A DNA stretch of 41,580 nucleotides from a virus (IMGVR_UViG_2565956608_000009); one strand, 5' to 3'; numbered from the stretch's first letter, positions 1 through 34,764 are shown. A program made the numbers and translations. Notes: generated by a model from the letters alone, not told the origin.

Positions 1-516
1 ATGAAATTTAAAAAATGTCTTCTGCCTGTGGCAATGTTAGCGTCATTCACTCTGGCAGGATGCCAGTCAAATGCTGATGATCATGCCGCCGATGTTTATC
101 AAACCGATCAACTGAATACCAAACAAGAAACTAAAACCGTTAATATTATTTCCATTCTTCCCGCAAAAGTTGCCGTAGACAACGCCCAAAATAAACGGAA
201 CGCACAAGCCTTCGGCGCGCTTATTGGCGCTGTCGCTGGCGGTGTTATCGGCCACAACGTCGGGTCTGGCAGCAATTCCGGAACGACGGCAGGTGCAGTT
301 GGCGGCGGAGCTGTAGGCGCGGCAGCGGGTTCTATGGTGAATGATAAAACCTTAGTGGAAGGTGTTTCTTTAACATATAAGGAAGGCACCAAAGTGTATA
401 CCTCCACCCAGGTGGGTAAAGAGTGCCAGTTTACGACAGGTTTAGCCGTTGTTATTACCACGACGTATAACGAAACGCGTATTCAGCCAAATACCAAATG
501 TCCTGAAAAGAGCTAA
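1..516 (+). CDS. Glycine-zipper outer-membrane lipoprotein (YcfJ/Pcp-like); probable chromosomal flank
   Basis: 171-aa ORF; lipoprotein signal peptide with lipobox LAGC; Gly/Ala-rich GAVAGGVIGHNVG...GGGAVGAAAG glycine-zipper segment; family assigned by motif recognition only. Confidence 0.65.
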   Translation: MKFKKCLLPVAMLASFTLAGCQSNADDHAADVYQTDQLNTKQETKTVNIISILPAKVAVDNAQNKRNAQAFGALIGAVAGGVIGHNVGSGSNSGTTAGAVGGGAVGAAAGSMVNDKTLVEGVSLTYKEGTKVYTSTQVGKECQFTTGLAVVITTTYNETRIQPNTKCPEKS

Positions 517-531
517 TAATCAGGAGGAGTC

Positions 532-1071
532 ATGAAGAAAGTTTTTCTTTGCGCCATCTTAGCCTCCTTAAGCTATCCGGCTATCGCCTCATCATTGCAG
601 GATCAACTCTCGGCTGTCGCAGAAGCGGAACAGCAAGGTAAAAATGAAGAGCAAAGGCAGCATGACGAATGGGTCGCGGAGCGCAACAGGGAAATCCAGC
701 AAGAGAAGCAACGTCGCGCAAACGCCCAGGCCGCGGCTAATAAAAGAGCGGCAACGGCAGCAGCGAATAAGAAAGCTCGTCAGGATAAACTGGACGCCGA
801 AGCCACTGCGGACAAAAAACGCGATCAAAGTTATGAAGATGAGCTACGTAGCTTAGAGATTCAGAAACAAAAACTGGCGCTGGCGAAAGAAGAAGCCCGC
901 GTCAAGCGCGAAAACGAATTTATCGATCAGGAACTGAAGCACAAAGCTGCGCAAACCGATGTGGTGCAATCTGAAGCTGACGCAAACAGAAATATGACTG
1001 AAGGCGGTCGCGATCTGATGAAAAGCGTGGGTAAAGCAGAAGAGAATAAATCAGATAGCTGGTTTAACTAA
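532..1071 (+). CDS. Secreted K/E/A/Q-rich coiled-coil protein, function unknown; probable chromosomal flank
   Basis: 179-aa ORF; N-terminal signal peptide MKKVFLCAILASLSYPAIA; SD AGGAGGAG at 522-529; starts 16 nt after the upstream gene. Confidence 0.6.
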   Translation: MKKVFLCAILASLSYPAIASSLQDQLSAVAEAEQQGKNEEQRQHDEWVAERNREIQQEKQRRANAQAAANKRAATAAANKKARQDKLDAEATADKKRDQSYEDELRSLEIQKQKLALAKEEARVKRENEFIDQELKHKAAQTDVVQSEADANRNMTEGGRDLMKSVGKAEENKSDSWFN

Positions 1072-1109
1072 ACGATGTTAGTAACTTCAAACCTATAATT
1101 CTTTAGGAT

Positions 1110-1143
1110 AAAAAAACCCTCTGTAGTAACAGAGGGTTTTGTT
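1110..1143. terminator. Bidirectional rho-independent terminator
   Basis: A-run, stem CCCTCTG (1117-1123) / CAGAGGG (1130-1136), then TTTTGTT; lies between the chromosomal + strand genes and the minus-strand Rz gene. Confidence 0.6.
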
Positions 1144-1289
1144 CATTCATAGTGCAGGGTCAAATCATTCCCACTCAATTATTTACGACAATCATAACCA
1201 ATTGAGTGATAACATTTTTCCAAAACTTCATTTTTCTAGTACCGTTTTATATACCGTCACCGGAAATCAGTACCATGAAAAATGCCATG

Positions 1290-1772
1290 CTATCTGGTCA
1301 GGGTATCGTATTGTTTTTCGCAGACTCTTCCGGCTTCGGCTGCCCGGTCAGCATACTCTGCCAGTTGTCTGTTTCTCTCGAGAGATTTGCTGAGCACGTC
1401 GGCAAGCAAAACTCCGGTGTCTGCGGCTGACGTCCCAGCGCCGACAATGGCGTTATACTGCCTGAGCTGCTCACGGATGGCAAAGAGTTGTTGCTGCAAC
1501 CGGCCAGCGCGAGCGGCAGCATCAAGAGCATCATTGCGCGCCTGGTCGATCCTCTGCTGCGCTTCACGTTCATTGATCGATTTCTCCTGTTCGTAGTGCT
1601 GACGAACTATCTCATCTTCAGCTTTGCGGTCTTCCTTCGCCTGCGCATACCCGGCATCGTACTGACGACTGCCGTGTGCATTCCAGGCTACAACTCCTGA
1701 TATGACCAGAACAGCAAGCATCGCCATGATAACCAACTGTTTCCAGTATGCTTTTGCGAATGCCCAGATCAT
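1290..1772 (-). CDS. Rz-like i-spanin
   Basis: 160 aa; N-terminal TM helix then coiled-coil periplasmic domain; immediately downstream of endolysin; contains an embedded lipoprotein ORF in another frame. Confidence 0.7.
1298..1534 (-). CDS. Rz1-like o-spanin lipoprotein embedded in Rz
   Basis: Start at tandem ATG (1529-1534); signal [13 protein letters not shown] with lipobox; Pro-rich mature part; wholly inside the Rz reading frame in a different frame. Confidence 0.55.
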   Translation of the reverse strand: MMLLMLPLALAGCSNNSLPSVSSSGSITPLSALGRQPQTPEFCLPTCSANLSRETDNWQSMLTGQPKPEESAKNNTIP

Positions 1773-2398
1773 ACCGCCAGCACCTTACTGGCAGTGATGT
1801 ATCGCGCGCGCCGGTCATCAATGCCGTTCCGGCCACCATTGATAAGCAGAGTTACACGTGCAATATCTCCGGTATACTTCATGCAACCTTTGCTGGAGAA
1901 GAACCACGCCGCGCTACGAGCCGCGTATTCGTCCTGCGCCAACAGTTCAGGATTCTCCAGCAGGTCAACTTTCAGACCGTTTCCACAGTCACGATAGTTA
2001 TTCAAACCGGTAATCTGGATAAGCCCGCGCCCACGGTAATTCCAGCCATCACCAGGGGCATTGTTCCCCATGCGTTTGCTGTACACCAGATTGGCGATCG
2101 CTCGCTGGCGCTCGAGTGGCAATGGTGGCTCACCAGCACGGCGACCAAGTGCATTAGCCTGCCCCTGAGTGAGACGCCCAGCCCGAACGAAGTTAGCCAG
2201 TCCGCTGACGCTGTAGTTGAAATTCTCCTGCAACCGGGTGAAGCCCCCAGACTCATGCCCGACTTGAGCAATAAACATTGCCTGATCTTCTGCTTTGCTG
2301 ATACCAAACTCTTTCATCGCAGAAGTTATATGCGAGAACCAGCGTGCGGCCAGCGCCTCGCTAATACCAGCAGCTCGCTGGAATTGTTTAATCTCCAT
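1769..2398 (-). CDS. Endolysin, glycoside hydrolase family 19-like
   Basis: Start at ATG 2396-2398 with SD GAGGT 7 nt upstream (ORF track extends to 2629); motif QVGHESGGF...ENFNYS characteristic of GH19-type phage lysozymes. Confidence 0.85.
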
Positions 2399-2696
2399 GT
2401 TTAGACCTCGATATTTTGAAAATCTGAACAACGTTACCGCGTGTTTTAATAACCGCGGCAAGCATGACAGCGTTGATAATGACCTCAGATAAATCCACAG
2501 CCATTGGCGTGCGTAACCAGATTGCATAGACGACACGAACAGGAATACTGGCCGCAGCAACAATAAGGAAATAAGCAAGCCACCCTCCCCATCTTCGATG
2601 TTGAGAGCCGTTACGCCGGAATGTGACAACGCGAATTGCTATGCCAGTACAAATAACTGCATTGGTGATAAGCAAAAAAAACTCATGCGTTACCAT
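2388..2696 (-). CDS. Small membrane protein of lysis cassette (holin/antiholin-like)
   Basis: 102 aa, 2-3 predicted TM helices; ATG 2694-2696 preceded by SD GGGGAG; overlaps the endolysin start. Confidence 0.45.
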
Positions 2697-3087
2697 CGTC
2701 TTTTCTCCCCGGAATTAAATCGCGTGGATTGTCTGAACGGTGGTAGAGCCATATACCAATACGCACAGCGACAATTGCTGACACGAATGCGCCAGCAGAG
2801 AAAACAATCCCTTTTTCAAAAGAGTCCTGCGTGATGGTAGGGATCAGGCTGGCTATGCCGATAAGAATTGATGCTGCTGGTTTGTAGAAAAGAAGTCCGC
2901 AGAGAAAGCTAAGCATCGATAAGAGTACGCGACGATGAATTGGGTACTCTACCGCAGAGGTAACAAAAATTACCGCACCAGCCAAAGACCCTAAAGCAAC
3001 CTCAGGAGGAACTCCTGCTATAACCGCAGCAAGAGAACTCATACTAAGCCATTGATTTAAAGATTCGCTGGTTAGCTGAACTGACAT
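2683..3087 (-). CDS. Holin-like 4-TM membrane protein (GtrA-like flippase not excluded)
   Basis: Likely start ATG 3085-3087 with SD GGTGG; ORF track starts at GTG 3096 giving MVFM, a possible dual-start motif; four hydrophobic segments; first gene of the lysis cassette. Confidence 0.5.
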   Translation of the reverse strand: MSVQLTSESLNQWLSMSSLAAVIAGVPPEVALGSLAGAVIFVTSAVEYPIHRRVLLSMLSFLCGLLFYKPAASILIGIASLIPTITQDSFEKGIVFSAGAFVSAIVAVRIGIWLYHRSDNPRDLIPGRKDDGNA

Positions 3088-3190
3088 AAAGACCACCGTT
3101 TAATGTGCATGAAGCCCCACTTAGTTAGTGAAATAACACACATATTAAACCATATATGAATCACATTTAAACGGATAACTCTTCACGAAA

Positions 3191-3205
3191 TTACCCTATA
3201 GGTGA
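3191..3205. promoter_or_regulatory. Operator-like palindrome TTACC-ctata-GGTGA upstream of the acetyltransferase gene
   Basis: One mismatch to TTACC-N5-GGTAA; 37 nt upstream of ATG 3242 in the divergent holin/acetyltransferase intergenic region. Confidence 0.4.
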
Positions 3206-3241: not shown

Positions 3242-5182
3242 ATGTCTTATTTAAAATACAGAACAGATATTGATGGGCTGCGAGCTATTGCGGTTTTGCT
3301 GGTCGTGCTGTACCACGCAAACTTTCCTATTCATGGTGGTTTTATTGGTGTAGATGTTTTTTTCGTCATATCAGGATATCTCATTACCAACATCATATAT
3401 AAAGAGACTAAAAGAAATATTTTTTCATTCCTTAATTTTTACAAACGTCGAATAAAGCGATTGCTCCCAGCTTTTGCTTTTCTTCTTTTATTTTTATTTG
3501 TTTACTGCAAATTATATTTGATGCCAGATGAACTTATATCATTCTCTAAAAGTGCGGTATACGCTCTTCTTGGCATAAGCAATTTCTATTTTTTTAGTAG
3601 CACAGGTTACTTTAACTCAACCTCTTATGAACCGCTTTTACACACATGGTCGCTTTCCGTTGAAGAGCAGTTCTACATTGTATGGCCTTTCATCGTTTTC
3701 ATGCTCGTTCGGAACTCAGGGACAAAAAAAGCAATAATAATATCCTCATTACTATTTATTGTATTCCTTGGTATTTCACAGTATGGAGCGGTTAATTATA
3801 AAACAGCAGCGTATCTCCTACTGCCTTTTAGGTTCTTTGAGTTGCTCTCAGGTGCCCTACTTGCTATCTATAAAGATTCAATAACAAAACATCTGCGCCA
3901 CGGTTCTGTAATTTCACTGGTCGGCGTAATGCTGATTGTGTTGAGTTCATTATTTATAAATTCTAACACGCCATTTCCTGGGTTCACTGTTTTGCCTACA
4001 TGTTTAGGCGCTGTAATGCTTATTGCTGCAGGTGACTCATCCAAAAACTTCATTTCTAAAGTGCTGTCTTTAACTCCAGTTGTTTATGTAGGAAGAATTT
4101 CCTACTCTCTTTATTTATGGCACTGGCCTGTACTGATTCTTGCTGAATACAGGGGTATCGATCTTACGGCCTTAAATGCGACGGCGCTCATACTTATCGC
4201 ATTCATCATGGCAAGCATAAGCTATCACTTCGTTGAAAAGCCATTTAGGAAGGATTCGCTGCAATATTTCAGGACTGCATTTATAACCATCTACTTGATA
4301 CCATTAATAGTATCCGCTGCCTATGCAGCGTACATTTTAAAAAATGATGGTTTTCGCGCCAAAAGTTCAGAGTTAGTATCTGAATTAGAAGAGAGAAACG
4401 CGACAAATATTATGCGCCCACAGTGTATTGATAAATTATTTATCGGTAATGTAAATGACTGTCATCTTGGCGTTAATAAAGGCGAAGTAGATGGCGTGCT
4501 TCTTGGTGACTCCTTTGGTAATGCATATGCTTACTTTATTGATGAACTTGCGAAAGATGCTGGAATATCAATAACAGATACTACATATAGCTCAACACCT
4601 GTAATATCAGGAATTTATGTGCAGGATATCAGAAATAAGATATCTGACATAGATGCTAACCTGATAATGACATATACAAAAAACAGGCTGGAGTATGCAG
4701 CAAAACAAAAGTTCGCGATAATTTCCGTTTTTTGGGATCAGTACGGGCCACAAAATAATTACTTCCGTATCTTCGATAAAAACGGTGACGTATCGGAGAA
4801 TGCTTACCAGTTGCAATCTGAAGCAATAAAATATCTGCTGTCCAATGGCGTGAAAGTTTACATCATTGCAAGACCTTACCAGTCTATTGGCCCTGCTGCG
4901 ATAAACAAACTGCGCCAAATTAAGCTACGGCATGGGGATGTAACAACTGAAAAATATGAATACGGCGTAAAGAAAGATGATCGGATAGAATACAAGTTAA
5001 AGCAGGAGTTCCCTCAGATAACGCTAATCGATCCTAACGATGTACTTTGCCACAAAGGGGAATGTGATGCCATCGTGGATGGGAAGATCATTTTCAGAAC
5101 TGATGGTTCACACCTGAATGCTGTTGGAGCAAAAAAAATCGGGGAAGAGTATTTGAAAAACTACGCAAACCCATTTCGATAA
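3242..5182 (+). CDS. O-antigen acetyltransferase (acyltransferase-3 membrane domain plus C-terminal SGNH-like domain)
   Basis: 646 aa; N-terminus DGLRAIAVLLVVLYH...GGFIGVDVFFVISGYLIT typical of acyltransferase family 3 (OafA/Oac type); about 10 TM helices then a soluble domain; AT-rich relative to neighbours. Confidence 0.85.
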   Translation: MSYLKYRTDIDGLRAIAVLLVVLYHANFPIHGGFIGVDVFFVISGYLITNIIYKETKRNIFSFLNFYKRRIKRLLPAFAFLLLFLFVYCKLYLMPDELISFSKSAVYALLGISNFYFFSSTGYFNSTSYEPLLHTWSLSVEEQFYIVWPFIVFMLVRNSGTKKAIIISSLLFIVFLGISQYGAVNYKTAAYLLLPFRFFELLSGALLAIYKDSITKHLRHGSVISLVGVMLIVLSSLFINSNTPFPGFTVLPTCLGAVMLIAAGDSSKNFISKVLSLTPVVYVGRISYSLYLWHWPVLILAEYRGIDLTALNATALILIAFIMASISYHFVEKPFRKDSLQYFRTAFITIYLIPLIVSAAYAAYILKNDGFRAKSSELVSELEERNATNIMRPQCIDKLFIGNVNDCHLGVNKGEVDGVLLGDSFGNAYAYFIDELAKDAGISITDTTYSSTPVISGIYVQDIRNKISDIDANLIMTYTKNRLEYAAKQKFAIISVFWDQYGPQNNYFRIFDKNGDVSENAYQLQSEAIKYLLSNGVKVYIIARPYQSIGPAAINKLRQIKLRHGDVTTEKYEYGVKKDDRIEYKLKQEFPQITLIDPNDVLCHKGECDAIVDGKIIFRTDGSHLNAVGAKKIGEEYLKNYANPFR

Positions 5183-5212: not shown

Positions 5213-7444
5213 TTAAGACTTCTTAAGGTACGACCATGTAACAGTGGTCGTACCGCTGCTGGTAATAGATATATCCCTTTCTGATACGCTTGCTGTGAGG
5301 AACACCGCAGTCTTCAGCGGCTGGATCATTGCTGTCGTACCATCATAAATTACCAGGAATGAAATCGCGTAGTTTGCACCTCCGCCAGAAACCCACACGT
5401 TAACATCATAAACTCCCTCAGAGTTTGGCAAAGTAAAGAGCACGGACGCTACGTTAGCGTTGACCGATTTAGTACCATTGTCGGTATAGACCGTGGGCAC
5501 CTGAAGCCCATTGGCATTTTTATTTTCTACATACCCACCAGCAATAACGCCTGACGTGATGCAGTTCGTGTAGTTAACGTTGCCGGTGCTCACAGTAGAG
5601 ATGGTTGGAGTTCCTCCGGCCGGAGCCTGGAACCGGCAGTTATCTGCATCAACCTGCGAGGTTACATCTGTGTGGATGAATGATGGATAGCCGGCCATTC
5701 CTTCAAAAGCGATCGGCGTACCATCGAAGCTATCTTTGCAGTTCAGCATCTTCACGCGAGATCCATTTATCGCGCGGTAAAAATCAACGATACCATTAGA
5801 ACCACCGAAAGATGTTTTCAACTTGTTGCCAGAACCAACTGCCCCGACTATCGAAACGGTTGAATTATCGAATGTCATAAACGCCACCTCAAGTGCTGAG
5901 TTGTTGTTTATAACGTTCGCCTCACCATCAAAACCGGAGATAAGAAATCCGTGACAATTCGAAAGGTAAATAGCAGACTGACCGATAGACGCGTTGGAGT
6001 TTACTGTCATCTTATCTGCTGCGCAGTTCGTCATCTGCCCTGAAAGGAGGTTTGTTAAATACCACGCGCATACGCCACCCATTACATAGCAGGACTCATA
6101 ATGGATCGTCGTGCCGGTGTTTTTGTAGAAACCACCGCGACTGCGACGCACCCATACATGCTCAAGCCTAGACATATAATTTCCAGAGTCGTCATATACT
6201 CCCCACCATGCCCCATCTATATCGACGTTTTTAATCCTTATCAAACCCGGCGATGTCTCACCACCATTTATAAGAATGCCAATTTTACCGTCGTTTGTGG
6301 CAGCATCTGTTGGATAGTCAATTCCATTCTGATCATAGAAAATATATAAATTCTCAATATTTCCTGAAGCAAAAGACTCTCCATAATGTAAGCACGCTTT
6401 ATTTCCAATTACGGAAATAAAAGTCCCTGATCTATTTATTATGTTATTACACTCACCGTATACAGTTGCAGATGTATTCATCTTAATAGTGTCATTAACA
6501 AAATATGCATTTCCACCTGGAATAAACACATTTCGTCCAGTGTTAATAGCTGCCTGTATTCCTGCGTAGTCAAAAGACTGGGTAAGCGATGTCACAAATG
6601 GATATACCATTTGTGCTGCTGTCAATGTTGAAAACACTTCGCTTAACTGATGAAGTTTTCCATCGCCTGTAGCACCAAAATCTTTTGCACTAATAAAATC
6701 GCTGTTTTTATCATGCTGTGTACGAATAAATGAACTAATGAAAGGTTGCTTCACCGAGATCAGAGCATCGCCTTTCCCGTCCTCGCCGCTGGCCAACTGG
6801 TTGAATACGTCAGCCGCCGTTCCTGAAGGCACAGGGAACGGAACGGGCTTACCGTTGGCGATGCCGATTATGCTTCCTTCAAGTTGAGCGAGAGGTGGCA
6901 GCGGATCGATATAAGAATCAGGAACACGGATTGTATGGTCGATATTCGATAAAACCGTACTGTCCACATAATTCTTTGTGGATGCATCCTGCGGGTTTAC
7001 CGGGTCTTTCAGGTTTCGAATATAGTTGTTCAGCGCGTTATAATAATTTGCCACGAATGACGGCTTGCGCAGCGCCAAGCTAAACCAACTTCGAACCTGC
7101 TGGATCAGCATCGTTAGCTTATCAAAAGCATCCTCATGCACTTCTGCAAAGAACTTCCCCTGATTACGCAAATCAGTTTCCTGCGTAACCGGGAGCTCTC
7201 GTGATATAGAAATCTGGTAACCGTTAGCTAACGCCTTCGACAGAATTACATTACCGCCGTTATATCCACCAGCCCCAGTGACAGTGTAATCAGTATCCAG
7301 AGCCAGCACAGCGATATTTTCGTCAAGGTCAACCACCTGCACTACCAGATCAGATTCCTTGAAAACCCTAAAGGTATAAGGGAATGAAGTCGTAACGCCA
7401 TTGCCTGTGTATTCGTTGTGGTCAACTTCGGTTGAGACCGTCAT
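5213..7444 (-). CDS. Tailspike / tail fibre protein
   Basis: 743 aa; N-terminus NEYTGNGVTTSFPYTF resembles the conserved particle-binding domain of podovirus tail fibres and spikes; long beta-rich repetitive body; SD GGAG before ATG 7442-7444. Confidence 0.8.
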   Translation of the reverse strand: MTVSTEVDHNEYTGNGVTTSFPYTFRVFKESDLVVQVVDLDENIAVLALDTDYTVTGAGGYNGGNVILSKALANGYQISISRELPVTQETDLRNQGKFFAEVHEDAFDKLTMLIQQVRSWFSLALRKPSFVANYYNALNNYIRNLKDPVNPQDASTKNYVDSTVLSNIDHTIRVPDSYIDPLPPLAQLEGSIIGIANGKPVPFPVPSGTAADVFNQLASGEDGKGDALISVKQPFISSFIRTQHDKNSDFISAKDFGATGDGKLHQLSEVFSTLTAAQMVYPFVTSLTQSFDYAGIQAAINTGRNVFIPGGNAYFVNDTIKMNTSATVYGECNNIINRSGTFISVIGNKACLHYGESFASGNIENLYIFYDQNGIDYPTDAATNDGKIGILINGGETSPGLIRIKNVDIDGAWWGVYDDSGNYMSRLEHVWVRRSRGGFYKNTGTTIHYESCYVMGGVCAWYLTNLLSGQMTNCAADKMTVNSNASIGQSAIYLSNCHGFLISGFDGEANVINNNSALEVAFMTFDNSTVSIVGAVGSGNKLKTSFGGSNGIVDFYRAINGSRVKMLNCKDSFDGTPIAFEGMAGYPSFIHTDVTSQVDADNCRFQAPAGGTPTISTVSTGNVNYTNCITSGVIAGGYVENKNANGLQVPTVYTDNGTKSVNANVASVLFTLPNSEGVYDVNVWVSGGGANYAISFLVIYDGTTAMIQPLKTAVFLTASVSERDISITSSGTTTVTWSYLKKS

Positions 7445-7639: not shown

Positions 7640-7897
7640 ATGCAGCAGTATCACTATCCACTGGAAGAGGGATTTACCGAAAGGATTCACACGCCGGGAG
7701 GCGTCAGGTCACTGGTGGAAGGATCGCACTTGATGAAATTACTCCGGGATCTCGATAAGGATGGATTTAATGTCGATGGCCCACTTGCCGAACTGACTGC
7801 ACTGATTAACTACGTCACCAGCTCACAGATGTCTATGCAGGATCTGCAAACACATCTCGACTATTGTGCCGAACAACTACGAAAACAAACCACATAA
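7640..7897 (+). CDS. Small antirepressor-like protein (standalone homologue of the C-terminal domain of the Bro-N antirepressor at 9045-9755)
   Basis: 85 aa from ATG 7640 (SD GGAGAAG at 7628-7634); ORF track start 7517 would span the LexA box; clear similarity to the C-terminus of the 9045 protein (LMKLLRDLDKDGFNVDGPLAELT / LMNLLNQLQDDGHDVSGAAAELT; DLQTHLDY / DIQTHAEY). Confidence 0.55.
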   Translation: MQQYHYPLEEGFTERIHTPGGVRSLVEGSHLMKLLRDLDKDGFNVDGPLAELTALINYVTSSQMSMQDLQTHLDYCAEQLRKQTT

Positions 7898-15269: not shown

Positions 15270-17779
15270 TGCGGAATATCTCCGGAGAATCTCTGACGCT
15301 TCTGTGTCAGATCAAGAACAACGGGAGAACCATCATCTTTTAGCAGATAACCAGTACCAAGTTTCACCAGGTACTGACTATCGCCGTAACTTTGCAAACC
15401 ATACTGACCAGGCGGTGTTTTTATCCCTGTGCCAACAACTTGTTCATTCCAAGCCTGATTAACCTGCTTATCGAATTGCTCTGCAGACATTCCCCACGGC
15501 AAAAGAACATTCCCCATTCCGTTATAGTCATGCACGCCACCTGTAGCTACGTTAACAGCCTGTTTCCAGATATCATTGTCAATTTCGCCTGATACCACGC
15601 CTTTTTTCGCCATCACACCAGCGTAATAGTCCTTTGCGATCTCGTATGCCATTGATGCCCCCTGAGCATCACCAGCAAATGCATCCTTCACCATGTCAGA
15701 AAACTCAAGGCGGAGATCAGCATCTTTAGGCATCGGAATACCTTTCGCGTCATCAGTACCTTTACGAGCCGCCGCGCCAGCAAGAATTGTCTGCGCAGCG
15801 GTTTCAGGAGACACGGAAACATCCGGATTAAACCAGTTTTTTTCTGCCAAAATACCACCTGGCTTATCCATCAGTATCCCGGCAACGGCAGCAGATGGAG
15901 CGTTGGCACTGATCTGCTGTAGTGCTGACATATACACCTGCCCACCACCAGTGCTCTGCCTGATGGTATCGAGATATGCTGCCTGTTGGGAAACGGGCGC
16001 ATCACGAAAGAAAACACCGATCTGATTGGCCTCGTCTTTGGAAAAGAACGTCAGTGGAGTGCCATATGACTTAGCAAGGTCACTGACCTGAGCAGCACGC
16101 AAGGCAACGCTCTGTCCAAAGTTATCCTTATTGCTCATGTCGATAGGCTTTGCCTGTCCGGCGGCAAGAGAGAACTGTACAGGATCAGCCTGTCGCTGCT
16201 TTATCACCTGACTTGCAGCCGACACAACGTTGTCATAAAGAGCGGCTCGTGCCGCATAACCCTCCCCTGTCTCACCAGTATCCGGGCGTAATTGCTCAAC
16301 ATATGCTGTAATGCTGCTTGTCGGCATGTTGCGGAAAGAGCCTATATACTGTCCGGCGATTTGCGTATTTCTGAACTCGGTATATCGCAGTTTTCCTTCT
16401 CTGACTCCATAAGCTGCAATAAAATCAGCCTCACCAGGTGGGTTAGGAAATTCAACGCCACGCATATACGCAGCTGTCGCATCGCGAACCTGGCTGTCAA
16501 TCATCGTTTTATATTCAGCCTGCTGCTGCCGACGCAGTTGATCCGCCTGTCGCATAAAACTTGCCTGCGCCTCAGGAGATGCCGCATCGAATGCTGCATT
16601 ACCGGTATAGCGTTTGGTGTTGGTTGGAATTGTTGATAAACCAAGTGCTGCACTGACACCAGCAGTTAACTGCTGATCACTGTATGGCTGGCTACCGTTC
16701 TCATGATGGATAATGGCTGCACAAAGCGCCTTCAGGGTATCAGGATTAGATGCATCGAGAGGCTCATCAGCAGAAACGCCAAGTTGTTCGCACACTGCTT
16801 TGATATACGACATAGTGTCATTTTTATCAGTAGGCGGTGCCCAGCGATTAATTATCTCGCTGACGGTATCAATACCCTGCCTCTGATACGACATCAGGTT
16901 CCGCCCTAATGCACGAATCCCGTGTTCAGGTGTTTCGAATTTAGCAAATCGACCATCATCACCGGTCTGGCCTACCCACGGATTAGTTTTGCTGTATTCG
17001 AGATTTCCTGGGTTATTGTTGCGTATGCCACGGGCACGCTCGGAAGAGTCACTATCTGCTACAGCACGGCGAGCTCCAGCAGCAGTATCGCTTAACTCGC
17101 CATTACTTTGGATAAATGAGATCGCATTGTTTGCCGACCACTGGGACAATGCTGCATCAGCAACCTTCTCTTTAAACTCGATTTTCTTGGCCTGTATTTG
17201 CTCGTCGCTCCAGCCATGTGCAGCACCGTACTCCTCAATTTGCTGGAAAGTTTGCTTATTAGCCAATACGTATGCGGCATTGTCGCCATACAATGCTGCG
17301 GCATTTTTACCATTGTTCAGCAGCGTCGCCTGAAACTGACCTTCTTCGTAGGCATTTATTTGCCCTATCTCGTGCCGCCCGGCCTGCGTAGTGAACTGAA
17401 TACGCTGCTGCTGCGCCTGCTGCATGAAAGCATTACGAGCCTGTTCATCCGGCAGCGACATAGCCAGTTGTTCGATCTGAGCATCAAACTGCTGCGTATA
17501 CTCCTGACCTTTTCCAATAGCATTTTTCCATTTCAGGTTAAGCAAACCTGTTTCAGGGTTATTCAGCAGATCGCTGCCTGTCTGACTGAGTTTAAGGGAT
17601 GCCTCCTGAGCCAGAGCGATATTGGCACGCTGTTTTGCCTGACCAAAAACATCAATTGTCTCTGCCCCTGCCCGAACAAAAGCATCACCAATACCTGGCT
17701 GAGAAAACGTCTGCAAGCCTGCTGACTGAACTCCACGGCTCTCAACCTGACGTCCGGATACTGTTGGTACGACTGGCAT
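15266..17779 (-). CDS. Internal virion protein with peptidoglycan-hydrolase-like domain
   Basis: Start ATG 17777-17779 overlapping the upstream stop (TAATG); central motif ARGIRNNNPGNLEY...HGIRALGRNL resembles virion-associated muralytic domains. Confidence 0.7.
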   Translation of the reverse strand: MPVVPTVSGRQVESRGVQSAGLQTFSQPGIGDAFVRAGAETIDVFGQAKQRANIALAQEASLKLSQTGSDLLNNPETGLLNLKWKNAIGKGQEYTQQFDAQIEQLAMSLPDEQARNAFMQQAQQQRIQFTTQAGRHEIGQINAYEEGQFQATLLNNGKNAAALYGDNAAYVLANKQTFQQIEEYGAAHGWSDEQIQAKKIEFKEKVADAALSQWSANNAISFIQSNGELSDTAAGARRAVADSDSSERARGIRNNNPGNLEYSKTNPWVGQTGDDGRFAKFETPEHGIRALGRNLMSYQRQGIDTVSEIINRWAPPTDKNDTMSYIKAVCEQLGVSADEPLDASNPDTLKALCAAIIHHENGSQPYSDQQLTAGVSAALGLSTIPTNTKRYTGNAAFDAASPEAQASFMRQADQLRRQQQAEYKTMIDSQVRDATAAYMRGVEFPNPPGEADFIAAYGVREGKLRYTEFRNTQIAGQYIGSFRNMPTSSITAYVEQLRPDTGETGEGYAARAALYDNVVSAASQVIKQRQADPVQFSLAAGQAKPIDMSNKDNFGQSVALRAAQVSDLAKSYGTPLTFFSKDEANQIGVFFRDAPVSQQAAYLDTIRQSTGGGQVYMSALQQISANAPSAAVAGILMDKPGGILAEKNWFNPDVSVSPETAAQTILAGAAARKGTDDAKGIPMPKDADLRLEFSDMVKDAFAGDAQGASMAYEIAKDYYAGVMAKKGVVSGEIDNDIWKQAVNVATGGVHDYNGMGNVLLPWGMSAEQFDKQVNQAWNEQVVGTGIKTPPGQYGLQSYGDSQYLVKLGTGYLLKDDGSPVVLDLTQKRQRFSGDIPQ

Positions 17780-18324
17780 TATAATCCTCCAGGTAATCTG
17801 GTTCCTGCTGCTGCCCCGATTGGCGCAGGAGTGCTTTGAGTAAACGGACTCCACGTCCCACCAAACATCTGGTACGCACCGTATGCCTTCAGAGGCGCAG
17901 TGAGCAATGTTGTTGCTGCTCCCACATTCCCCTGTTTACGGGCTGAACTGGCTTCTGCTTTATAGTTAGCAGCCTGAACCTGATAACCGTAAGCCTCGCG
18001 TTGCGCGTTATTCACCGTCGTCAGCGAATCAAGGGCGCCAAACTGAGCAGTGTCACCAAATATATCCAGCGCGTTACCTGTAGATAAATCGGCGCCGGTC
18101 GCCCCCATTGTCGCCGCCTGTGTACCAAGCCGCTGTCGGGTCTCTCTGCGCCGTTGCTCAGCTTCAGCGTTACCCCTATTTATTGCATCATTTGCCTGAG
18201 CTGTGGCTATATCTGCGTTCGCTTCTGCAACCTTCGAGGCATACTTTCCCTGTTGGTACTGGGTGTATGCCTGAATGCCACTCATGGCGAGCATTGCGCC
18301 ACCAGCAATAACCGGATCGCACAT
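17779..18324 (-). CDS. Small internal virion protein, function unknown
   Basis: 181 aa; Ala/Gln-rich; translationally coupled within the late operon. Confidence 0.5.
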   Translation of the reverse strand: MCDPVIAGGAMLAMSGIQAYTQYQQGKYASKVAEANADIATAQANDAINRGNAEAEQRRRETRQRLGTQAATMGATGADLSTGNALDIFGDTAQFGALDSLTTVNNAQREAYGYQVQAANYKAEASSARKQGNVGAATTLLTAPLKAYGAYQMFGGTWSPFTQSTPAPIGAAAGTRLPGGL

Positions 18325-18788
18325 TATTTTCTCTCCATGTGAAATCTGTGGAAATTAAGACCAAGAGCACCATAAGGCGCGGCTTCTTCAAGCCTGAATC
18401 CAAGCCAGTGGAGCCATGCTTTGGCAACATGGTTTCGCTCGTCGACGTAGTTTTCCAGGCGCGGATAAACTGCCAGCATCTGCCGCAATACAGGGTGGCA
18501 GTGGCGAAGAAATGTCTTCTGATATTTTTCAATACGGCTGGTCCCGACCAGCCAGGGCGTACCATTGCCACCGATCATTGACGCCGGAGATACACCAAAC
18601 ATGGTTACCAGTTCTCCGTTCGCGAACCCTGACCAGGCCATAGTCGCAGTGCGCAGACCAACACGCAGCGCATCTTCGGTAGTCATCAGCGATACCGCAT
18701 ACAGTTCGTCAATATCAGCCTGACGAACATCCGGCAAAATCATCTGAAGATGCTCTTCGGTTGCGGGAATAATTTGAACACCAATCAT
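18324..18788 (-). CDS. Hypothetical late protein
   Basis: 154 aa; start overlaps the stop of the upstream gene (ATGA). Confidence 0.5.
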   Translation of the reverse strand: MIGVQIIPATEEHLQMILPDVRQADIDELYAVSLMTTEDALRVGLRTATMAWSGFANGELVTMFGVSPASMIGGNGTPWLVGTSRIEKYQKTFLRHCHPVLRQMLAVYPRLENYVDERNHVAKAWLHWLGFRLEEAAPYGALGLNFHRFHMERK

Positions 18789-21259
18789 CAGAATCCCCCA
18801 ACAGTAAGGCGAGGAATAACGGCAAGAACAGACAGCGGCAACGGATCAAGCTGACGGATTTTTACACGTCCGTTTTTGCCCCAGTTACTGTCCAGTTTCA
18901 CTTCTACTTTTCCGGTAGCATCATCAACAGGATCATCGTAGAACTCGAATTCACGCTGTGGATATTCGTACCATTTACCGCCGGGCGTAGTCGCCCAGAT
19001 GCCGCGGCTGGCATTCACAACCAGAGTAACGGATGGGATCACCTGTTTTTTGTCCAGCAGCGTTTCCTGTCCGTTAATGTTGATATCCAGTGTTTCGAAT
19101 TCAGCAGTTATTGGCAGGCCGATGTGCACTACAGCCCCCGGAGATTCCAGCGTGACGGCACCTCCGGAAACCACTTTCTGTGGTTCCACGTTCGCATCAG
19201 AGAGAATGTTTACGGTCTGGCCTTCAAGATGAGACAGGCCTCCAAATGTCCGGCGCGCCATCTGCCAGTTCGTGGTGGCCACATTCCTGAGGGATGGCGG
19301 GACGTTCCTGTTAGCACGAACCACTACAGCGGTATTGCTGGTTACAGAAATAATGTCGCAACGTAATTCTTTTGACACTTCATCGCCAGTATCAGGATCA
19401 GTTCCGGTATAAGGGAATTGTAGTTGCGCACCGACATCACTACTGGTGAAGTACGCACCACCAGAAATACTGATTGTATATTCCACGCGGTAATCCCATT
19501 CACCAGAACCACCAGTGATGGTCATCGTTCTGTCAGACGTATTTCTTCCATCATAGCTAAGGCCAGAATCAACAAAGAAAGCATCTTCATCGCTGGTAAA
19601 TAAACGGCTGGACAGCCGCTCGATGTATCTCACTGTTTGCCCGTTAACGGTTCGGTTAACGACGAAATACACCGCATCTTCATTTCCTTCGCTGATACTG
19701 CATGTGCTTTCATATTTTCCGGTACTGGACTGTGGTGCCCATGCAAAAACCTGTTGATCACGCAAATAGGTCATCACCAGTAATTTACCGTCATCACGAA
19801 TGCAGAAGGCGCTGGAGTAAGGGACAATAGAGAAGCACCAGTCAACAATGCTGTGCTTCTGAAAAAGATGATTGGCAAGGATGGTCAGGTCGTTCCCCTG
19901 ATAGCCGTCAACATCGAATGAGTAGGCCAGATCACGGACAACACTGCCTTTCTCCTGGACGAACAGAGCAATATTCGCCACGGCAATTGGTGGGACATTG
20001 CTCGAGCCATTTGATCCCTGAGAGCTGAATGCAAATGATGATGGGGTTAACACTTTGTTCTGGTCGCCGGTGATGACGTACTCACCTCCGGAAGTCAGCG
20101 CCACCAGCGAACCAACATCAATCAGGTGACGGATCTCATTAACCTGACGCCCGGCATAGGTGTAGATAATTCTGTCGTCATCCTGCGTAGGATTGCTTTT
20201 GCCAAAATCCTTATAATCCCCAGTACGGCTGGCTCAGATAGTCTGAGGGAACGCAGTCGATGCGGCGAAGTAAAGACGTTGTTGATAATAAACAACAGTG
20301 CCAGGATAACCATTAACACTGTTCCAGGCATATTTAGCCCATTTATAGCTGGCATTATCCTCGCCAACTACCTGCGAAGGGATATAGGAAATCACCTCGG
20401 CAGTTGCAGTAGTTCCATTTGCAGCAGTGATACGGGCAATGCCAAAACCACTGTGCAGATACTCCCACTCAATGCCAGTATCATCATCACCGGAGCCGCC
20501 CCAGCCATCCCATGATGTGCCTTCTGTATGCGAAGGGCGCAAAGTGCCTGTTTTGCCTGCTGTAACGGCGCGATAGTAGTTACTGTCTGCACGGCGAATA
20601 TCGCTAATCGACGTACTCTTACTGGTTTCCCATACCGGCACTGAATCCACTGCAGGCTGTTCCAGATAGAACAATTTGCCTACCTGCTCCGCGCCAAAAA
20701 TAGAGGCGCTTGCCGTTAACGTAATTGTCCCAGTGCTGGCGCTGGCATAAACCGTCACTGACTCGTCGATATTGATATCTTCAAATGGTCCGTTCTTCGT
20801 TACCACATCAACCAGTTGCCAGTTGTCATGCGCATAGCGACGCAACTCTTTCGGCGGGTATGCCGGATGAACAAGCGTAAGCACGTCGGCGCTTTGCGTG
20901 AATTTAATTCGGAACAGATCGGCTTCAGTATATGGCGTGGCAATTTCATAAATAACATTGCTGCTGTTCAGCACCAACGCACCATCTTTGATAACGCGCA
21001 TGTACTGGTGTCCGAACTCCAGAGCGTAGGTCTGAACCGTCGAGAACTGGAACGGGATCAGGCGGCATTTCCGATTTGGGTATTTGGCGGCACCGACAAA
21101 ACGCGTACCAGGTCGATTCTCAACGCCGCCATACTGCCGCACGATAAAGTTATCGCACTTGCGCAATGCCACCTGGTACTTCGCCATGTCGATACGACCG
21201 TACAACGACGGTCCAATCTCACCACCGGCAAAGCTGGGCTGGATCCAACTGATAGCCAT
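18788..21259 (-). pseudogene. T7 gp12-like tail nozzle gene interrupted by a single in-frame TGA (20234-20236)
   Basis: ORFs 20234-21259 (341 aa) and 18788-20104 (438 aa) are in the same frame; the 43 codons between them are open and the track start at 20104 is a GTG inside continuous coding; combined about 822 codons, the size expected for a nozzle protein. Confidence 0.6.
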
Positions 21260-21864
21260 CAGGACAACCTCGCAATGGTAAACTCGTCAACCGGTGGCTG
21301 TGGTTCCTGTGATTCATTCTGGCTATGCGAGCCAGCACTAAGAATCACGCGATTGTACATATTGAGAGCAAATGTACCGAGATCCGCATTCCCAGTCAGC
21401 GCCATGTTAATGGCTGCCGCAAGACGCCAGGCCAACGCCTCCATAAAAATGGCATCAAACATGTTCACATCTGAAACGCGAGAGACATACTTGAGCCATG
21501 CCTGCGGCTGGTCTGTGTAGATCAACTTTCCTGTTCCGTCGGTGTCTGCACCAACTTCGTACTGAACGCGCATTGCTGCTGTTGGATTGCGTACACCAGG
21601 AAGCATAATTTCAGTAATGCGCAGACAATCTGACGGGTACTGATACGCATATTCCCAGTCAGGCGGTGGATTGCTCGTATCTGCAAGTGCCACGCGTTTG
21701 GTAGCAAAGTTCCAGTCAAAATCAGAAAGCACAGCATCACGGCAGGCCTCAAAGTGCAGCGAACATTCCCCCGCTTCCTTACTGGCTTCCGTCAGGCTGT
21801 TAATGCTGCGGCTATTGCCAATATTGGACAGCGCACGATTGCAGATCTCTACTACAGAGGCCAT
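21259..21864 (-). CDS. Tail adaptor (T7 gp11-like tubular protein A)
   Basis: 201 aa; N-terminal pattern VVEICNRALSNIGNS...WNFA resembles T7 gp11; sits just before the nozzle gene. Confidence 0.55.
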   Translation of the reverse strand: MASVVEICNRALSNIGNSRSINSLTEASKEAGECSLHFEACRDAVLSDFDWNFATKRVALADTSNPPPDWEYAYQYPSDCLRITEIMLPGVRNPTAAMRVQYEVGADTDGTGKLIYTDQPQAWLKYVSRVSDVNMFDAIFMEALAWRLAAAINMALTGNADLGTFALNMYNRVILSAGSHSQNESQEPQPPVDEFTIARLS

Positions 21865-27392: not shown

Positions 27393-27469
27393 GTGGCATT
27401 AGCTCAGTTGGACAGAGCAACCGCCTTCTAAGCGGTCGGTCGCAGGTTCGAATCCTGCATGCCACGCCA
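27393..27469 (+). tRNA. tRNA-Arg (anticodon UCU), phage-encoded
   Basis: 77 nt with CCA; 7-bp acceptor stem GTGGCAT/ATGCCAC, D-arm GCTC/GAGC, anticodon stem ACCGC/GCGGT with loop CTTCTAA, T-arm GCAGG-TTCGAAT-CCTGC; internal to the prophage, so not the integration site. Confidence 0.85.
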
Positions 27470-32526: not shown

Positions 32527-33312
32527 TTACTTGATAAATCCTGCCGCCTTTCCCCGCCTGTATTCCTCCATTAGCCACTGCGCCGGTGTTATTCCCCCCA
32601 GGGTGGCGGCGTTAGGCATACACCCGAAACTTCGCCCTGGTGGATGGTAAACGTCTCTCCCTGTGTCCGGAGGCGTACTCATGGGCTCTGGCTTTGCCTG
32701 TATGCTGATCACCGGATCGGGTATCTGCTGTCCGGAAGCCACCTTTTTCGCCCAATCATCGAGCAGCCTGCGCGCGTGTTTCTCAACCTCAATCTCGCTA
32801 AGCTGGCGCTGATACATTGCACGGCGGGTATCACATACGACCCAGTACATAACCGGATGTCGCCACGGGAATCTTTCGGGACCACCAGGATATAAACTTT
32901 TTTCCTTGCTGTACCGGTGAAACTCCGCCATCACATCGTCAATGGTGACGCCAAGAACCATCTTGCTGTCTTTACACCACTTGATGAATTGCCCTGGCGA
33001 CGGCCAGAACGGAGACTCACTGGCGCGAGCGTGGCGCATACCAGCAGAAACCTGTTCACGGGTTCGGATCCCACCTTCGGCAAACGCAGCAATCCACTGC
33101 TGTTTTGCAGCAACTTCCTGCTCTGGCGTCTTCAGGTTGGTTACTACTGCCGCCGGAAACAGTTGTTTCAGCTGTTTGAAAAGGGCATCAACAAGCCTCT
33201 CTGCTGACATGTTCACCACATTGTCATTGTTGACGTATTGATGCTCATAACCTGACATGCGAGAAAGGGCTTCTCCGTCACGGTTTTGTATCGCGGTAAA
33301 AACGTTGTTCAC
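32527..33312 (-). CDS. Replication protein P-like (DnaB helicase loader)
   Basis: Similarity to lambda P: QWIAAFAEGGIRTREQVSAGMRHARASESPFWPSPGQFIKWCKD vs lambda QWVLAFRENGITTMEQVNAGMRVARRQNRPFLPSPGQFVAWCRE; probable GTG start 33310-33312 with SD GGGAGGA (track start 33327). Confidence 0.8.
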   Translation of the reverse strand: MNNVFTAIQNRDGEALSRMSGYEHQYVNNDNVVNMSAERLVDALFKQLKQLFPAAVVTNLKTPEQEVAAKQQWIAAFAEGGIRTREQVSAGMRHARASESPFWPSPGQFIKWCKDSKMVLGVTIDDVMAEFHRYSKEKSLYPGGPERFPWRHPVMYWVVCDTRRAMYQRQLSEIEVEKHARRLLDDWAKKVASGQQIPDPVISIQAKPEPMSTPPDTGRDVYHPPGRSFGCMPNAATLGGITPAQWLMEEYRRGKAAGFIK

Positions 33313-34100
33313 AAGAAATCCTCCCACGCTTCAGGGCTGTTCCAGTGCGGAACGTTGTTATCAGGTAATGTTGATTGCTTCTGTCTGCTAATCTGCAGCC
33401 GCCTTGCCAGCTTCTGCTCCCACTGTGCCTGATGGTATGCCTTACCCTCAGCCATCCAGTAAATTCTGAACTCTGCAAGTTCCTGTGCCGTTGGCAGACT
33501 GTCCAGGTAGATTCCCTGCAATGAGCTTTTCCGAAGAAAGTCATCTGATGGTTGCCATTGTTCATGCATGACAAATTTGCCTAATTGCCCTGGCCCACCA
33601 GGAGGAACAAAGTTATTCATCACGGCGTTGTTTGCGCCGGGGTCATGAGGCACAGAATCCCCGGTTTTTGTCCTGCTCCCCCTCTCTTGGTTAAATGACT
33701 GGTTATATGACTGGTTCTGGATCCCGTTTTTGGGATCATTCAACATCCCGTTTTTGGGTATATTCCCGTTTTCGGTAACATTTCCGTTTTCGGGTTCATT
33801 ACTCCCTTCCCGGTTGCCTTTAATGTTCCCGTTTTTGGTTATATTAAGAGAGAAAACCCGCACTCTTTTCGTCGCTCCCTTTCTCTCTCCGGTATCTGAA
33901 ATAAGCCCCATTTTCATGAGCGATATAAGCCCGGCCTGCACGGTTTTTTTATTCAGGCAAGTGTCTTTAACGAGGCGTTCTATGCTGGGGTAGCAGAGGT
34001 TATATTCATCGGCTCTGTCAGCCATCGAGAGCAGTATGAGCTTTAATGATGAGCTGCCTGGATCTGTCTCCCAGGCCCAATCTGTTGCATGTCTGCTCAT
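33309..34100 (-). CDS. Replication initiator (O-like): N-terminal HTH domain, low-complexity linker, C-terminal domain
   Basis: 263 aa; N-terminal KLILLSMADRADEY...LCYPSIERLVKDTCLNKKTVQAGLISLMKMGLI resembles the winged-helix of phage initiators; linker is encoded by the iteron array; SD GGAG before ATG 34098-34100. Confidence 0.7.
   Translation of the reverse strand: MSRHATDWAWETDPGSSSLKLILLSMADRADEYNLCYPSIERLVKDTCLNKKTVQAGLISLMKMGLISDTGERKGATKRVRVFSLNITKNGNIKGNREGSNEPENGNVTENGNIPKNGMLNDPKNGIQNQSYNQSFNQERGSRTKTGDSVPHDPGANNAVMNNFVPPGGPGQLGKFVMHEQWQPSDDFLRKSSLQGIYLDSLPTAQELAEFRIYWMAEGKAYHQAQWEQKLARRLQISRQKQSTLPDNNVPHWNSPEAWEDFL
33694..33842. repeat. Candidate replication origin: iterons inside the initiator gene
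   Basis: Five copies of TCCCGTTTT(T/C)GG starting near 33722, 33746, 33764, 33782 and 33827, plus tandem ATGACTGGTT x2 at 33696-33716. Confidence 0.6.
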
Positions 34101-34115
34101 GATTAATCTCCGCTA

Positions 34116-34316
34116 TCAGCTTGAATGTTGTGGGGAGGAATTAATCATGATCTGCTTAATCTCTGCCCTAATGCGACGGTTTGATTCCATGGTGCACTCA
34201 ACACAGTGTCCGTTGTAAACCCAGCGTTCACTGTCATGTCCGTGCTTACATGGTTTTCCGGTGTAGTAGCGTTTAAGTCCGCGCTTTGCGGCATCAATAC
34301 GTGTAATGATTTCCAT
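34116..34316 (-). CDS. Small putative zinc-binding protein
   Basis: 66 aa from ATG 34314-34316 (track starts at TTG 34379); Cys/His cluster PCKHGH...HCVEC; weak SD. Confidence 0.4.
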   Translation of the reverse strand: MEIITRIDAAKRGLKRYYTGKPCKHGHDSERWVYNGHCVECTMESNRRIRAEIKQIMINSSPQHSS

Positions 34317-34396
34317 GGTAAGCCCTGTTATTAGTATTGGGATTACGGTTATTTTGTGCTGACACAAAAAAAAGATCAACCAGATTTGGTTTTTTA

Positions 34397-34411
34397 TTAC
34401 CTTTAAGGTAC
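34397..34411. promoter_or_regulatory. Operator-like palindrome TTACC-tttaa-GGTAC
   Basis: One mismatch; between the Cro-like gene terminator and the next early gene. Confidence 0.4.
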
Positions 34412-34421
34412 GAATAGATAT

Positions 34422-34444
34422 GAAAAGACCGCCGGATGGCGGTC
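34422..34444 (-). terminator. Terminator hairpin after the Cro-like gene (tR1-like position)
   Basis: Minus-strand GACCGCC-atcc-GGCGGTC followed by TTTTCA. Confidence 0.5.
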
Positions 34445-34466
34445 TACAGAGGGTTGTAGCTGGATA

Positions 34467-34697
34467 TCATGAGTAGAAGAAGTATGCCAGTTCTGCTTTT
34501 GAGCGCAGCCATTGTCTTGTTTTACAGGCTTTAAAAAGCCCATTCATCAATACTTTACCTGGCATTTTTCGCTTACCTGTTAAGTGAGTCTGGATATAGT
34601 GACTCGTCGTTCCGGCTTCCTGTGCGAAGGCTTCACGCTCATCCGGAGTAAGTGCAAGCCAGTGCTTTTTGAAATCGAAATGTCCGTTATCGCTCAT
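34467..34697 (-). CDS. Cro-like small HTH regulator
   Basis: 76 aa; HTH-like WLALTPDEREAFAQEAGTTSHYIQTHLTGKRK; divergent from the repressor gene with operators between them. Confidence 0.55.
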   Translation of the reverse strand: MSDNGHFDFKKHWLALTPDEREAFAQEAGTTSHYIQTHLTGKRKMPGKVLMNGLFKACKTRQWLRSKAELAYFFYS

Positions 34698-34764
34698 AGC
34701 TATTGCCTGATATTTATTTCAGATAATAAATATTCACCCATAAGGTAACAAAAATCAAGGATAG

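Follow-up and report, generated by a model that had tools for sequence, protein, structure and literature searches.

A derived opal codon in the tail nozzle gene of an otherwise intact phiV10-like prophage of Escherichia coli: a probable recent nonsense mutation

A reading frame that continues beyond a single internal stop codon raises the question of whether the gene is broken, misread by the sequencer or still expressed in some unusual way. Such a locus is present in the window, i.e. the whole stretch of 41,580 nucleotides of viral DNA that was analysed here (IMGVR_UViG_2565956608_000009). There, a tail gene on the minus strand is split by one in-frame TGA. The first-pass annotation of this DNA had offered three explanations: a recent nonsense mutation in a defective prophage, a sequencing error, or low-level readthrough of UGA.

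Translation of 21259..18788 (minus strand) ran through 824 codons and was interrupted by a single internal stop, at codon 342 (TGA, 20236..20234). The gene thus consists of 822 sense codons, one internal TGA and the terminal stop. The stop is preceded by the residues ...YFAASTAFPQTI and followed by ASRTGDYKDFGK... in the translation of the window. In the ORF list, the two parts appeared as ORFs 20234..21259 (341 aa) and 18788..20104 (438 aa, GTG start) in the same frame. The split gene of about 822 codons described in the first-pass annotation was therefore confirmed by both translation and ORF list. The codons at the junction are ATC TGA GCC AGC CGT, with G as the base after the stop, and the base at 20234 on the plus strand is T. 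This site does not lie in a homopolymer. The 341-aa fragment stops just where the most conserved central domain begins; the central region of homology between T7 and epsilon15 begins at about T7 residue 354, which corresponds to about residue 321 of the window protein. Upstream, the stop of the adaptor gene overlaps the start of the nozzle gene (Table 1). The only tRNA that ARAGORN found in the window has the anticodon UCU, so the earlier statement that the phage tRNA is not an opal suppressor was correct. A hairpin of six perfect base pairs (CUCAGA-CUA-UCUGAG; 20228..20247, minus strand) that holds the new stop is completed by the G>A change. This hairpin is probably meaningless because the whole region folds no better than shuffled sequences.

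Table 1. Features at and around the interrupted nozzle gene (window coordinates)
Feature	Position	Strand	Basis or remark
Nozzle (tubular tail protein B) gene	18788..21259	-	phiV10 gp15/epsilon15 gp12 homologue
Premature opal codon, codon 342	20234..20236	-	TGG (Trp) to TGA, G>A at 20234
Still-translated 341-aa N-terminal fragment	20237..21259	-	translation, ORF list
Remainder beyond the stop, untranslated, 481 codons + stop	18788..20233	-	sequence, ORF list
Adaptor/tubular tail protein A gene, intact, epsilon15 gp11 homologue	21259..21864	-	phrog_394, phrog_9239
Internal virion protein gene, intact	18324..18788	-	annotation of identical copies
Internal virion protein gene, T7 gp14 family, intact	17779..18324	-	Pfam PF24072 T7_gp14, annotation
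tRNA-Arg(UCU), prophage	27393..27469	+	ARAGORN; tRNA-Arg annotated in identical genomes
RefSeq pseudogenes HHJ31_RS06710 (SCU-116), K6136_RS12705 (MS20673), AC3R3U_RS06855 (Eco_23-2678)			"internal stop"

The DNA of the nozzle gene (2.47 kb) was 97.7-98.4% identical over its full length to phiV10, TL-2011b, ZX5, PAS61 and other Escherichia phages, phiV10 itself being at 97.7%. The identity was 80.6% with Enterobacter phage Tyrion and 77.2% with Salmonella phage epsilon15. In these phages the gene is a single intact CDS of 819-825 codons annotated as "tail protein" (phiV10 gp15, epsilon15 gp12 and Tyrion gp13), with a 201-aa tail protein directly upstream and internal virion proteins directly downstream. 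The intact phiV10 protein matched the PDB chain 8ck1_A, "Tail Nozzle" (830 aa), over residues 2-822 (E=3e-217). With the family profile the match to this chain reached 8e-282, and 9efk_M, from an entry with six chains, was likewise matched. A full-text literature search for the PDB code 8CK1 gave no match; our guess is that this nozzle comes from Cobetia phage Carin-1. Pfam-A and NCBIfam contained no family for the nozzle, for either of its fragments or for the adaptor. Among the PHROGs, phrog_376 ("tail protein") spans residues 1-823 of the nozzle, and the upstream ORF matched phrog_394 ("tail protein") and phrog_9239 ("tail tubular protein"). Two further PHROGs matched only parts of phiV10 gp15, phrog_20269 at residues 1-407 (723 bits) and phrog_15566 at residues 300-823 (1024 bits), which implies that close relatives annotated in two overlapping pieces exist in phage databases; other mutations, frameshifts or errors of annotation may account for these.

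The gene order at the nozzle is T7-like, with the adaptor upstream and internal virion proteins downstream, T7_gp14 (PF24072) being two genes downstream. The annotation of epsilon15 gp11 cites an HHpred match to T7 tail tubular protein A. According to Hardies et al., T7 gp12 and epsilon15 gp12 are homologous tubular tail B (nozzle) proteins; the similarity was significant by PSI-BLAST/HHpred over a central stretch, T7 354-556. Our own hhalign comparison of a 6-sequence profile with T7 gp12 was weak (probability 4.4%, E=0.009; residues 319-396 with T7 350-426), and the alignment fell in the region that those authors reported with deeper profiles. T7 gp12 has the same position in the gene order and the same role as the window nozzle; it differs in that the sequence similarity by hhalign was marginal and that T7 is lytic and belongs to another family. 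In function and family, the "T7 gp12-type nozzle" of the first-pass annotation was right, as judged from the match to 8ck1_A and from Hardies et al. The structural module as a whole is collinear with those of phiV10 and epsilon15, as in a Uetakevirus-type phage. On sequence comparison, the window is a phiV10/epsilon15-like (Uetakevirus-type) prophage that lies beside yfgI in an E. coli chromosome.

Which codon is expected at position 342 can be read from the intact homologues. In phiV10, epsilon15 and Tyrion, TGG (Trp) was aligned to the TGA of the window. PhiV10 gp15 (YP_512269) and epsilon15 gp12 (NP_848220) are the same gene as in the window, of the same length and with the same neighbours, but they are intact, with TGG at codon 342. 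Trp342 sits in a PQTIW motif that is conserved in homologues with as little as about 35% identity. The Trp is shared by a Klebsiella prophage (58% identity), Pseudomonas phage Ab31, Xylella phage Usme, Bordetella phage BIP-1 and 8ck1; Pelagibacter phage Skadi-4 has Tyr at this position.

The gene was present in 534 of 5426 complete E. coli genomes. We counted the two alleles in complete E. coli genomes by exact matches of an 81-mer centred on codon 342. The TGA version was found in three records, SCU-116, MS20673 and Eco_23-2678, and the exact TGG version in 84 of the 523 records that matched the 81-mer. The three TGA genomes differ in laboratory, host and country of origin (USA, Australia and St Kitts). 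In all three, PGAP marked the nozzle gene as pseudo with an "internal stop" and flagged no other gene of the prophage, in agreement with the first-pass view that every other late gene looks intact. These RefSeq pseudogene copies are 100% identical to the window throughout the gene, TGA included, and share its prophage and chromosomal site. They differ from it outside the gene, where the window lacks one 24-bp unit and also lacks the IS3 of Eco_23-2678 (see below). The exact 341-aa product is on record as ESE15523.1 (GenBank, E. coli 908675), and it occurred on 96 contigs in NCBI, ENA and Logan (153 index blocks). Twenty-four of these contigs were read; 23 collapsed to one gene context and the remaining one had the same gene order. 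The stop in this gene is therefore already on record as a RefSeq-flagged pseudogene, and as a finding it is ordinary and of a familiar type.

The age of the allele was approached through its nearest relatives. Over ~41 kb, the window differed from the three TGA genomes by 0-4 SNPs and one 24-bp repeat unit. Strain AH19K002 shares both the prophage and its site, between integrase and yfgI, and its nozzle gene is intact (WP_001617186.1). Over 41 kb, 3 SNPs separated the AH19K002 prophage from the window, and window position 20234 was the sole difference within the nozzle gene. We also compared 24.9 kb of the chromosomal flank, with SCU-116 as the query. No genome but the three with TGA was perfectly identical over this flank (45984 bits). 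The next score, 45979 bits, was that of AH19K002 and several other strains, one step away, followed by UTI89, S88, IHE3034, APEC O1 and a strain named ST95-32. Judging from the names of the strains that share the flank, the host background seems to be ST95-like. The nonsense mutation is real, derived and rare, one base from the ancestral state and confined to genomes with an identical flank. The simplest reading of these sequence comparisons would be a single G>A transition that occurred in a young sublineage within an ST95-like clone and has since been inherited vertically. The proposal of a recent nonsense mutation was thus upheld: the homologues are intact with TGG, and the AH19K002 gene differs by that one base.

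Two other differences were observed among these prophages. A 24-bp unit (ATCATTCAACATCCCGTTTTTGGG) occurs once in the window, at 33735..33758, and as a tandem pair in each of the four near-identical complete genomes. The unit lies in a minus-strand ORF, 33309..34100, which is a DnaT-like replication gene; the extra copy adds 8 codons and keeps the frame. Either the copy number has truly changed or the repeat was collapsed in assembly. Because of this missing repeat unit (33758), the window is not identical to any complete genome. In Eco_23-2678, an IS3-family transposase lies within the prophage at 33521..34734 of its stretch, which corresponds to window ~7782..7785, with a 4-bp overlap of the flank alignments. 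This IS3 fits a second, independent step of prophage decay.

Several other explanations of the TGA have to be weighed against a nonsense mutation. That the true codon is TGG and the TGA a sequencing or assembly error might be suspected from the fact that only a single base separates it from the nearest intact allele. The same base, however, was present in three independent complete genomes from the USA, Australia and St Kitts. The window adds a fourth, non-identical copy, which counts as separate because the 24-bp indel sets it apart. In addition, the exact truncated protein occurred on 96 contigs and the site is not a homopolymer. As the allele recurs in many independent assemblies, across laboratories and continents, we exclude the sequencing error offered in the first-pass annotation and give it practically no chance. 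We put equally little faith in programmed recoding, whereby an evolved readthrough site or a selenocysteine UGA would yield two products from one gene. The open frame does continue beyond the in-frame UGA, but the stop is missing from all phage homologues examined and from >99% of E. coli copies, and the nearest relative, AH19K002, has Trp. Programmed readthrough and selenocysteine insertion were rejected because the stop is not conserved. No stimulatory or SECIS-like structure was found downstream of the UGA. The 101 nt around and after the stop had a minimum free energy of -21 kcal/mol, no better than shuffles (z = 0.11), and a search of Rfam over 19800..20600 returned nothing at E<=1.

Another explanation is a functional fission, in which the nozzle would now be built from two polypeptides as in some podoviruses. 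Two-subunit nozzles do exist, for example PhiXacm4-11 gp30+gp31 and phiRIO-1 gp44+gp40. The cryo-EM structure of PhiXacm4-11 showed the nozzle as a hexamer of gp30:gp31 heterodimers, and Hardies et al. described phiRIO-1 as another nozzle encoded by two ORFs (gp44/gp40). In Xylella phage Usme the homologue comprises two cistrons of 464 and 570 codons in different frames (locus 92..3195, junction 1470..1485), joined by an AGGAGG-N7-ATG that overlaps the TAA. The end of the first Usme cistron, ...RPGGSSNVQQEAL, is the gp30 C-terminus quoted for PhiXacm4-11. These homologous nozzles are encoded by conserved cistrons with a Shine-Dalgarno (SD) sequence and an ATG, are split at a linker near residue 290, and have both polypeptides in the virion. 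By contrast, a bare stop at residue 342 splits a single gene in the window. No start codon or SD sequence was found at its junction, and there is no in-frame start for 44 codons. The natural split corresponds to about residue 286-299 of phiV10 gp15, in a Gly/Ser-rich linker. The stop of the window, at 342, falls inside the PQTIW motif, and in Usme this motif is part of the second subunit. Moreover, the event is one base old. The first-pass annotation had asked whether homologues have two separate genes with a start codon and a ribosome-binding site at this junction; close relatives have one gene, and two genes were found only in a distant clade of Xanthomonas/Xylella phages, with the junction elsewhere. 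Downstream reinitiation was also rejected from the sequence. The first in-frame start after the stop is a GTG at 20104, 44 codons downstream and without an SD sequence, and a product from it would miss residues 342-385, including conserved motifs. Given the lack of a restart signal and the position of the stop within a second-subunit motif, functional fission is very unlikely.

Passive leakage of the stop deserves more attention. Among E. coli stop codons, UGA leaks the most, and its misreading yields mainly Trp. Readthrough of UGA is the outcome of competition between Trp-tRNA(Trp) and RF2, and in E. coli K-12 reporters it was ~2% at 37 C and ~4% at 25 C. The K-12 RF2 allele is described as inefficient, however, and may not be that of the host. 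A G after the stop raises readthrough, and the context in the window is TGA-G. The five nucleotides upstream of the stop (CTATC) contain T and no G, a context reported to lower readthrough. Since the ancestral residue at codon 342 is Trp, any Trp-readthrough product would be the wild-type nozzle. As UGA is leaky and chiefly misread as Trp, some wild-type full-length nozzle is probably made, by prediction from these rates and contexts. Only six nozzle copies are needed per virion, as judged from the hexamer in related phages, but surplus 341-aa fragment could interfere with assembly. That Trp-tRNA(Trp) would in this way supply a little full-length nozzle and a few infectious virions per induced cell seems to us rather unlikely, although it stands well above the three explanations treated so far. 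A stronger form, in which the opal allele is a leaky, self-correcting mutation and the throttled phage persists in a successful E. coli lineage, has a much slimmer chance. If it were true, very few infectious particles would be made, the lysogenic-conversion and lysis functions would be kept, and selection acting on the host could tolerate or even favour this state. All TGA copies examined lie in one chromosomal context with an identical flank, with no sign of horizontal transfer. Phage Qbeta makes its A1 protein by natural UGA readthrough by tRNA-Trp. As in Qbeta and the E. coli reporters, UGA might be misread here by tRNA-Trp at a low percentage. Sites of the Qbeta type are conserved and their extended product has its own function, whereas the stop in the window is a rare derived allele and readthrough would restore the ancestral protein. 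Of the low-level readthrough proposed in the first-pass annotation, only passive leakiness is left standing; the programmed form fails on an unconserved stop and the lack of a stimulatory structure.

We therefore return to the nonsense mutation. It is very probable, in our judgement, that the locus is a TGG>TGA nonsense pseudogene in an otherwise intact prophage, which arose once and recently, has been inherited vertically, and represents a first step of decay with loss of infectivity. As a hexamer beneath the adaptor, the nozzle (tubular tail protein B) would form the tip of the short tail. A single G>A change has turned the conserved Trp342 codon from TGG to TGA, so that translation should stop after 341 residues and the conserved central and C-terminal domains should be missing. 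In related solved nozzles it is these domains that touch the adaptor and the fibres. The distal tip of the PhiXacm4-11 nozzle is formed by the N-terminal subunit, and its C-terminal subunit contacts the adaptor and the fibres. From these roles we infer that the 341-aa fragment cannot build a tail and that induced particles would be non-infectious. Upon induction, the prophage would make heads and few or no infectious tailed particles. Nozzle function and infectivity would thus be lost. The mutation would have arisen once, in one bacterial sublineage, and have passed vertically with the chromosome as the first step of prophage decay. One point against this reading is that there is almost no decay elsewhere in the prophage and that many isolates have the allele. 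This fits a very recent origin. It is also possible that it leaves room for some residual nozzle function.

A gene that the identical genomes annotate as acyltransferase family (646 aa) was also observed at 3242..5182 (plus strand), adjoining a 743-aa "hypothetical protein" ORF at 5213..7444 (minus strand). By analogy with phiV10, we assume that this acyltransferase may serve lysogenic conversion (O-antigen modification). If so, the gene would still be useful to the host after the phage had been disabled.

Beyond annotation, the interrupted nozzle gene matters little, but it would provide a clean, datable first inactivating hit in an otherwise perfect prophage. AH19K002 with TGG and SCU-116, MS20673 and Eco_23-2678 with TGA form a natural isogenic pair, which could be used to gauge how much infectivity is kept by UGA leakiness at a Trp codon in wild E. 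coli. In genome scans, a structural gene of a prophage with a lone in-frame stop should be compared with close relatives before recoding is invoked.
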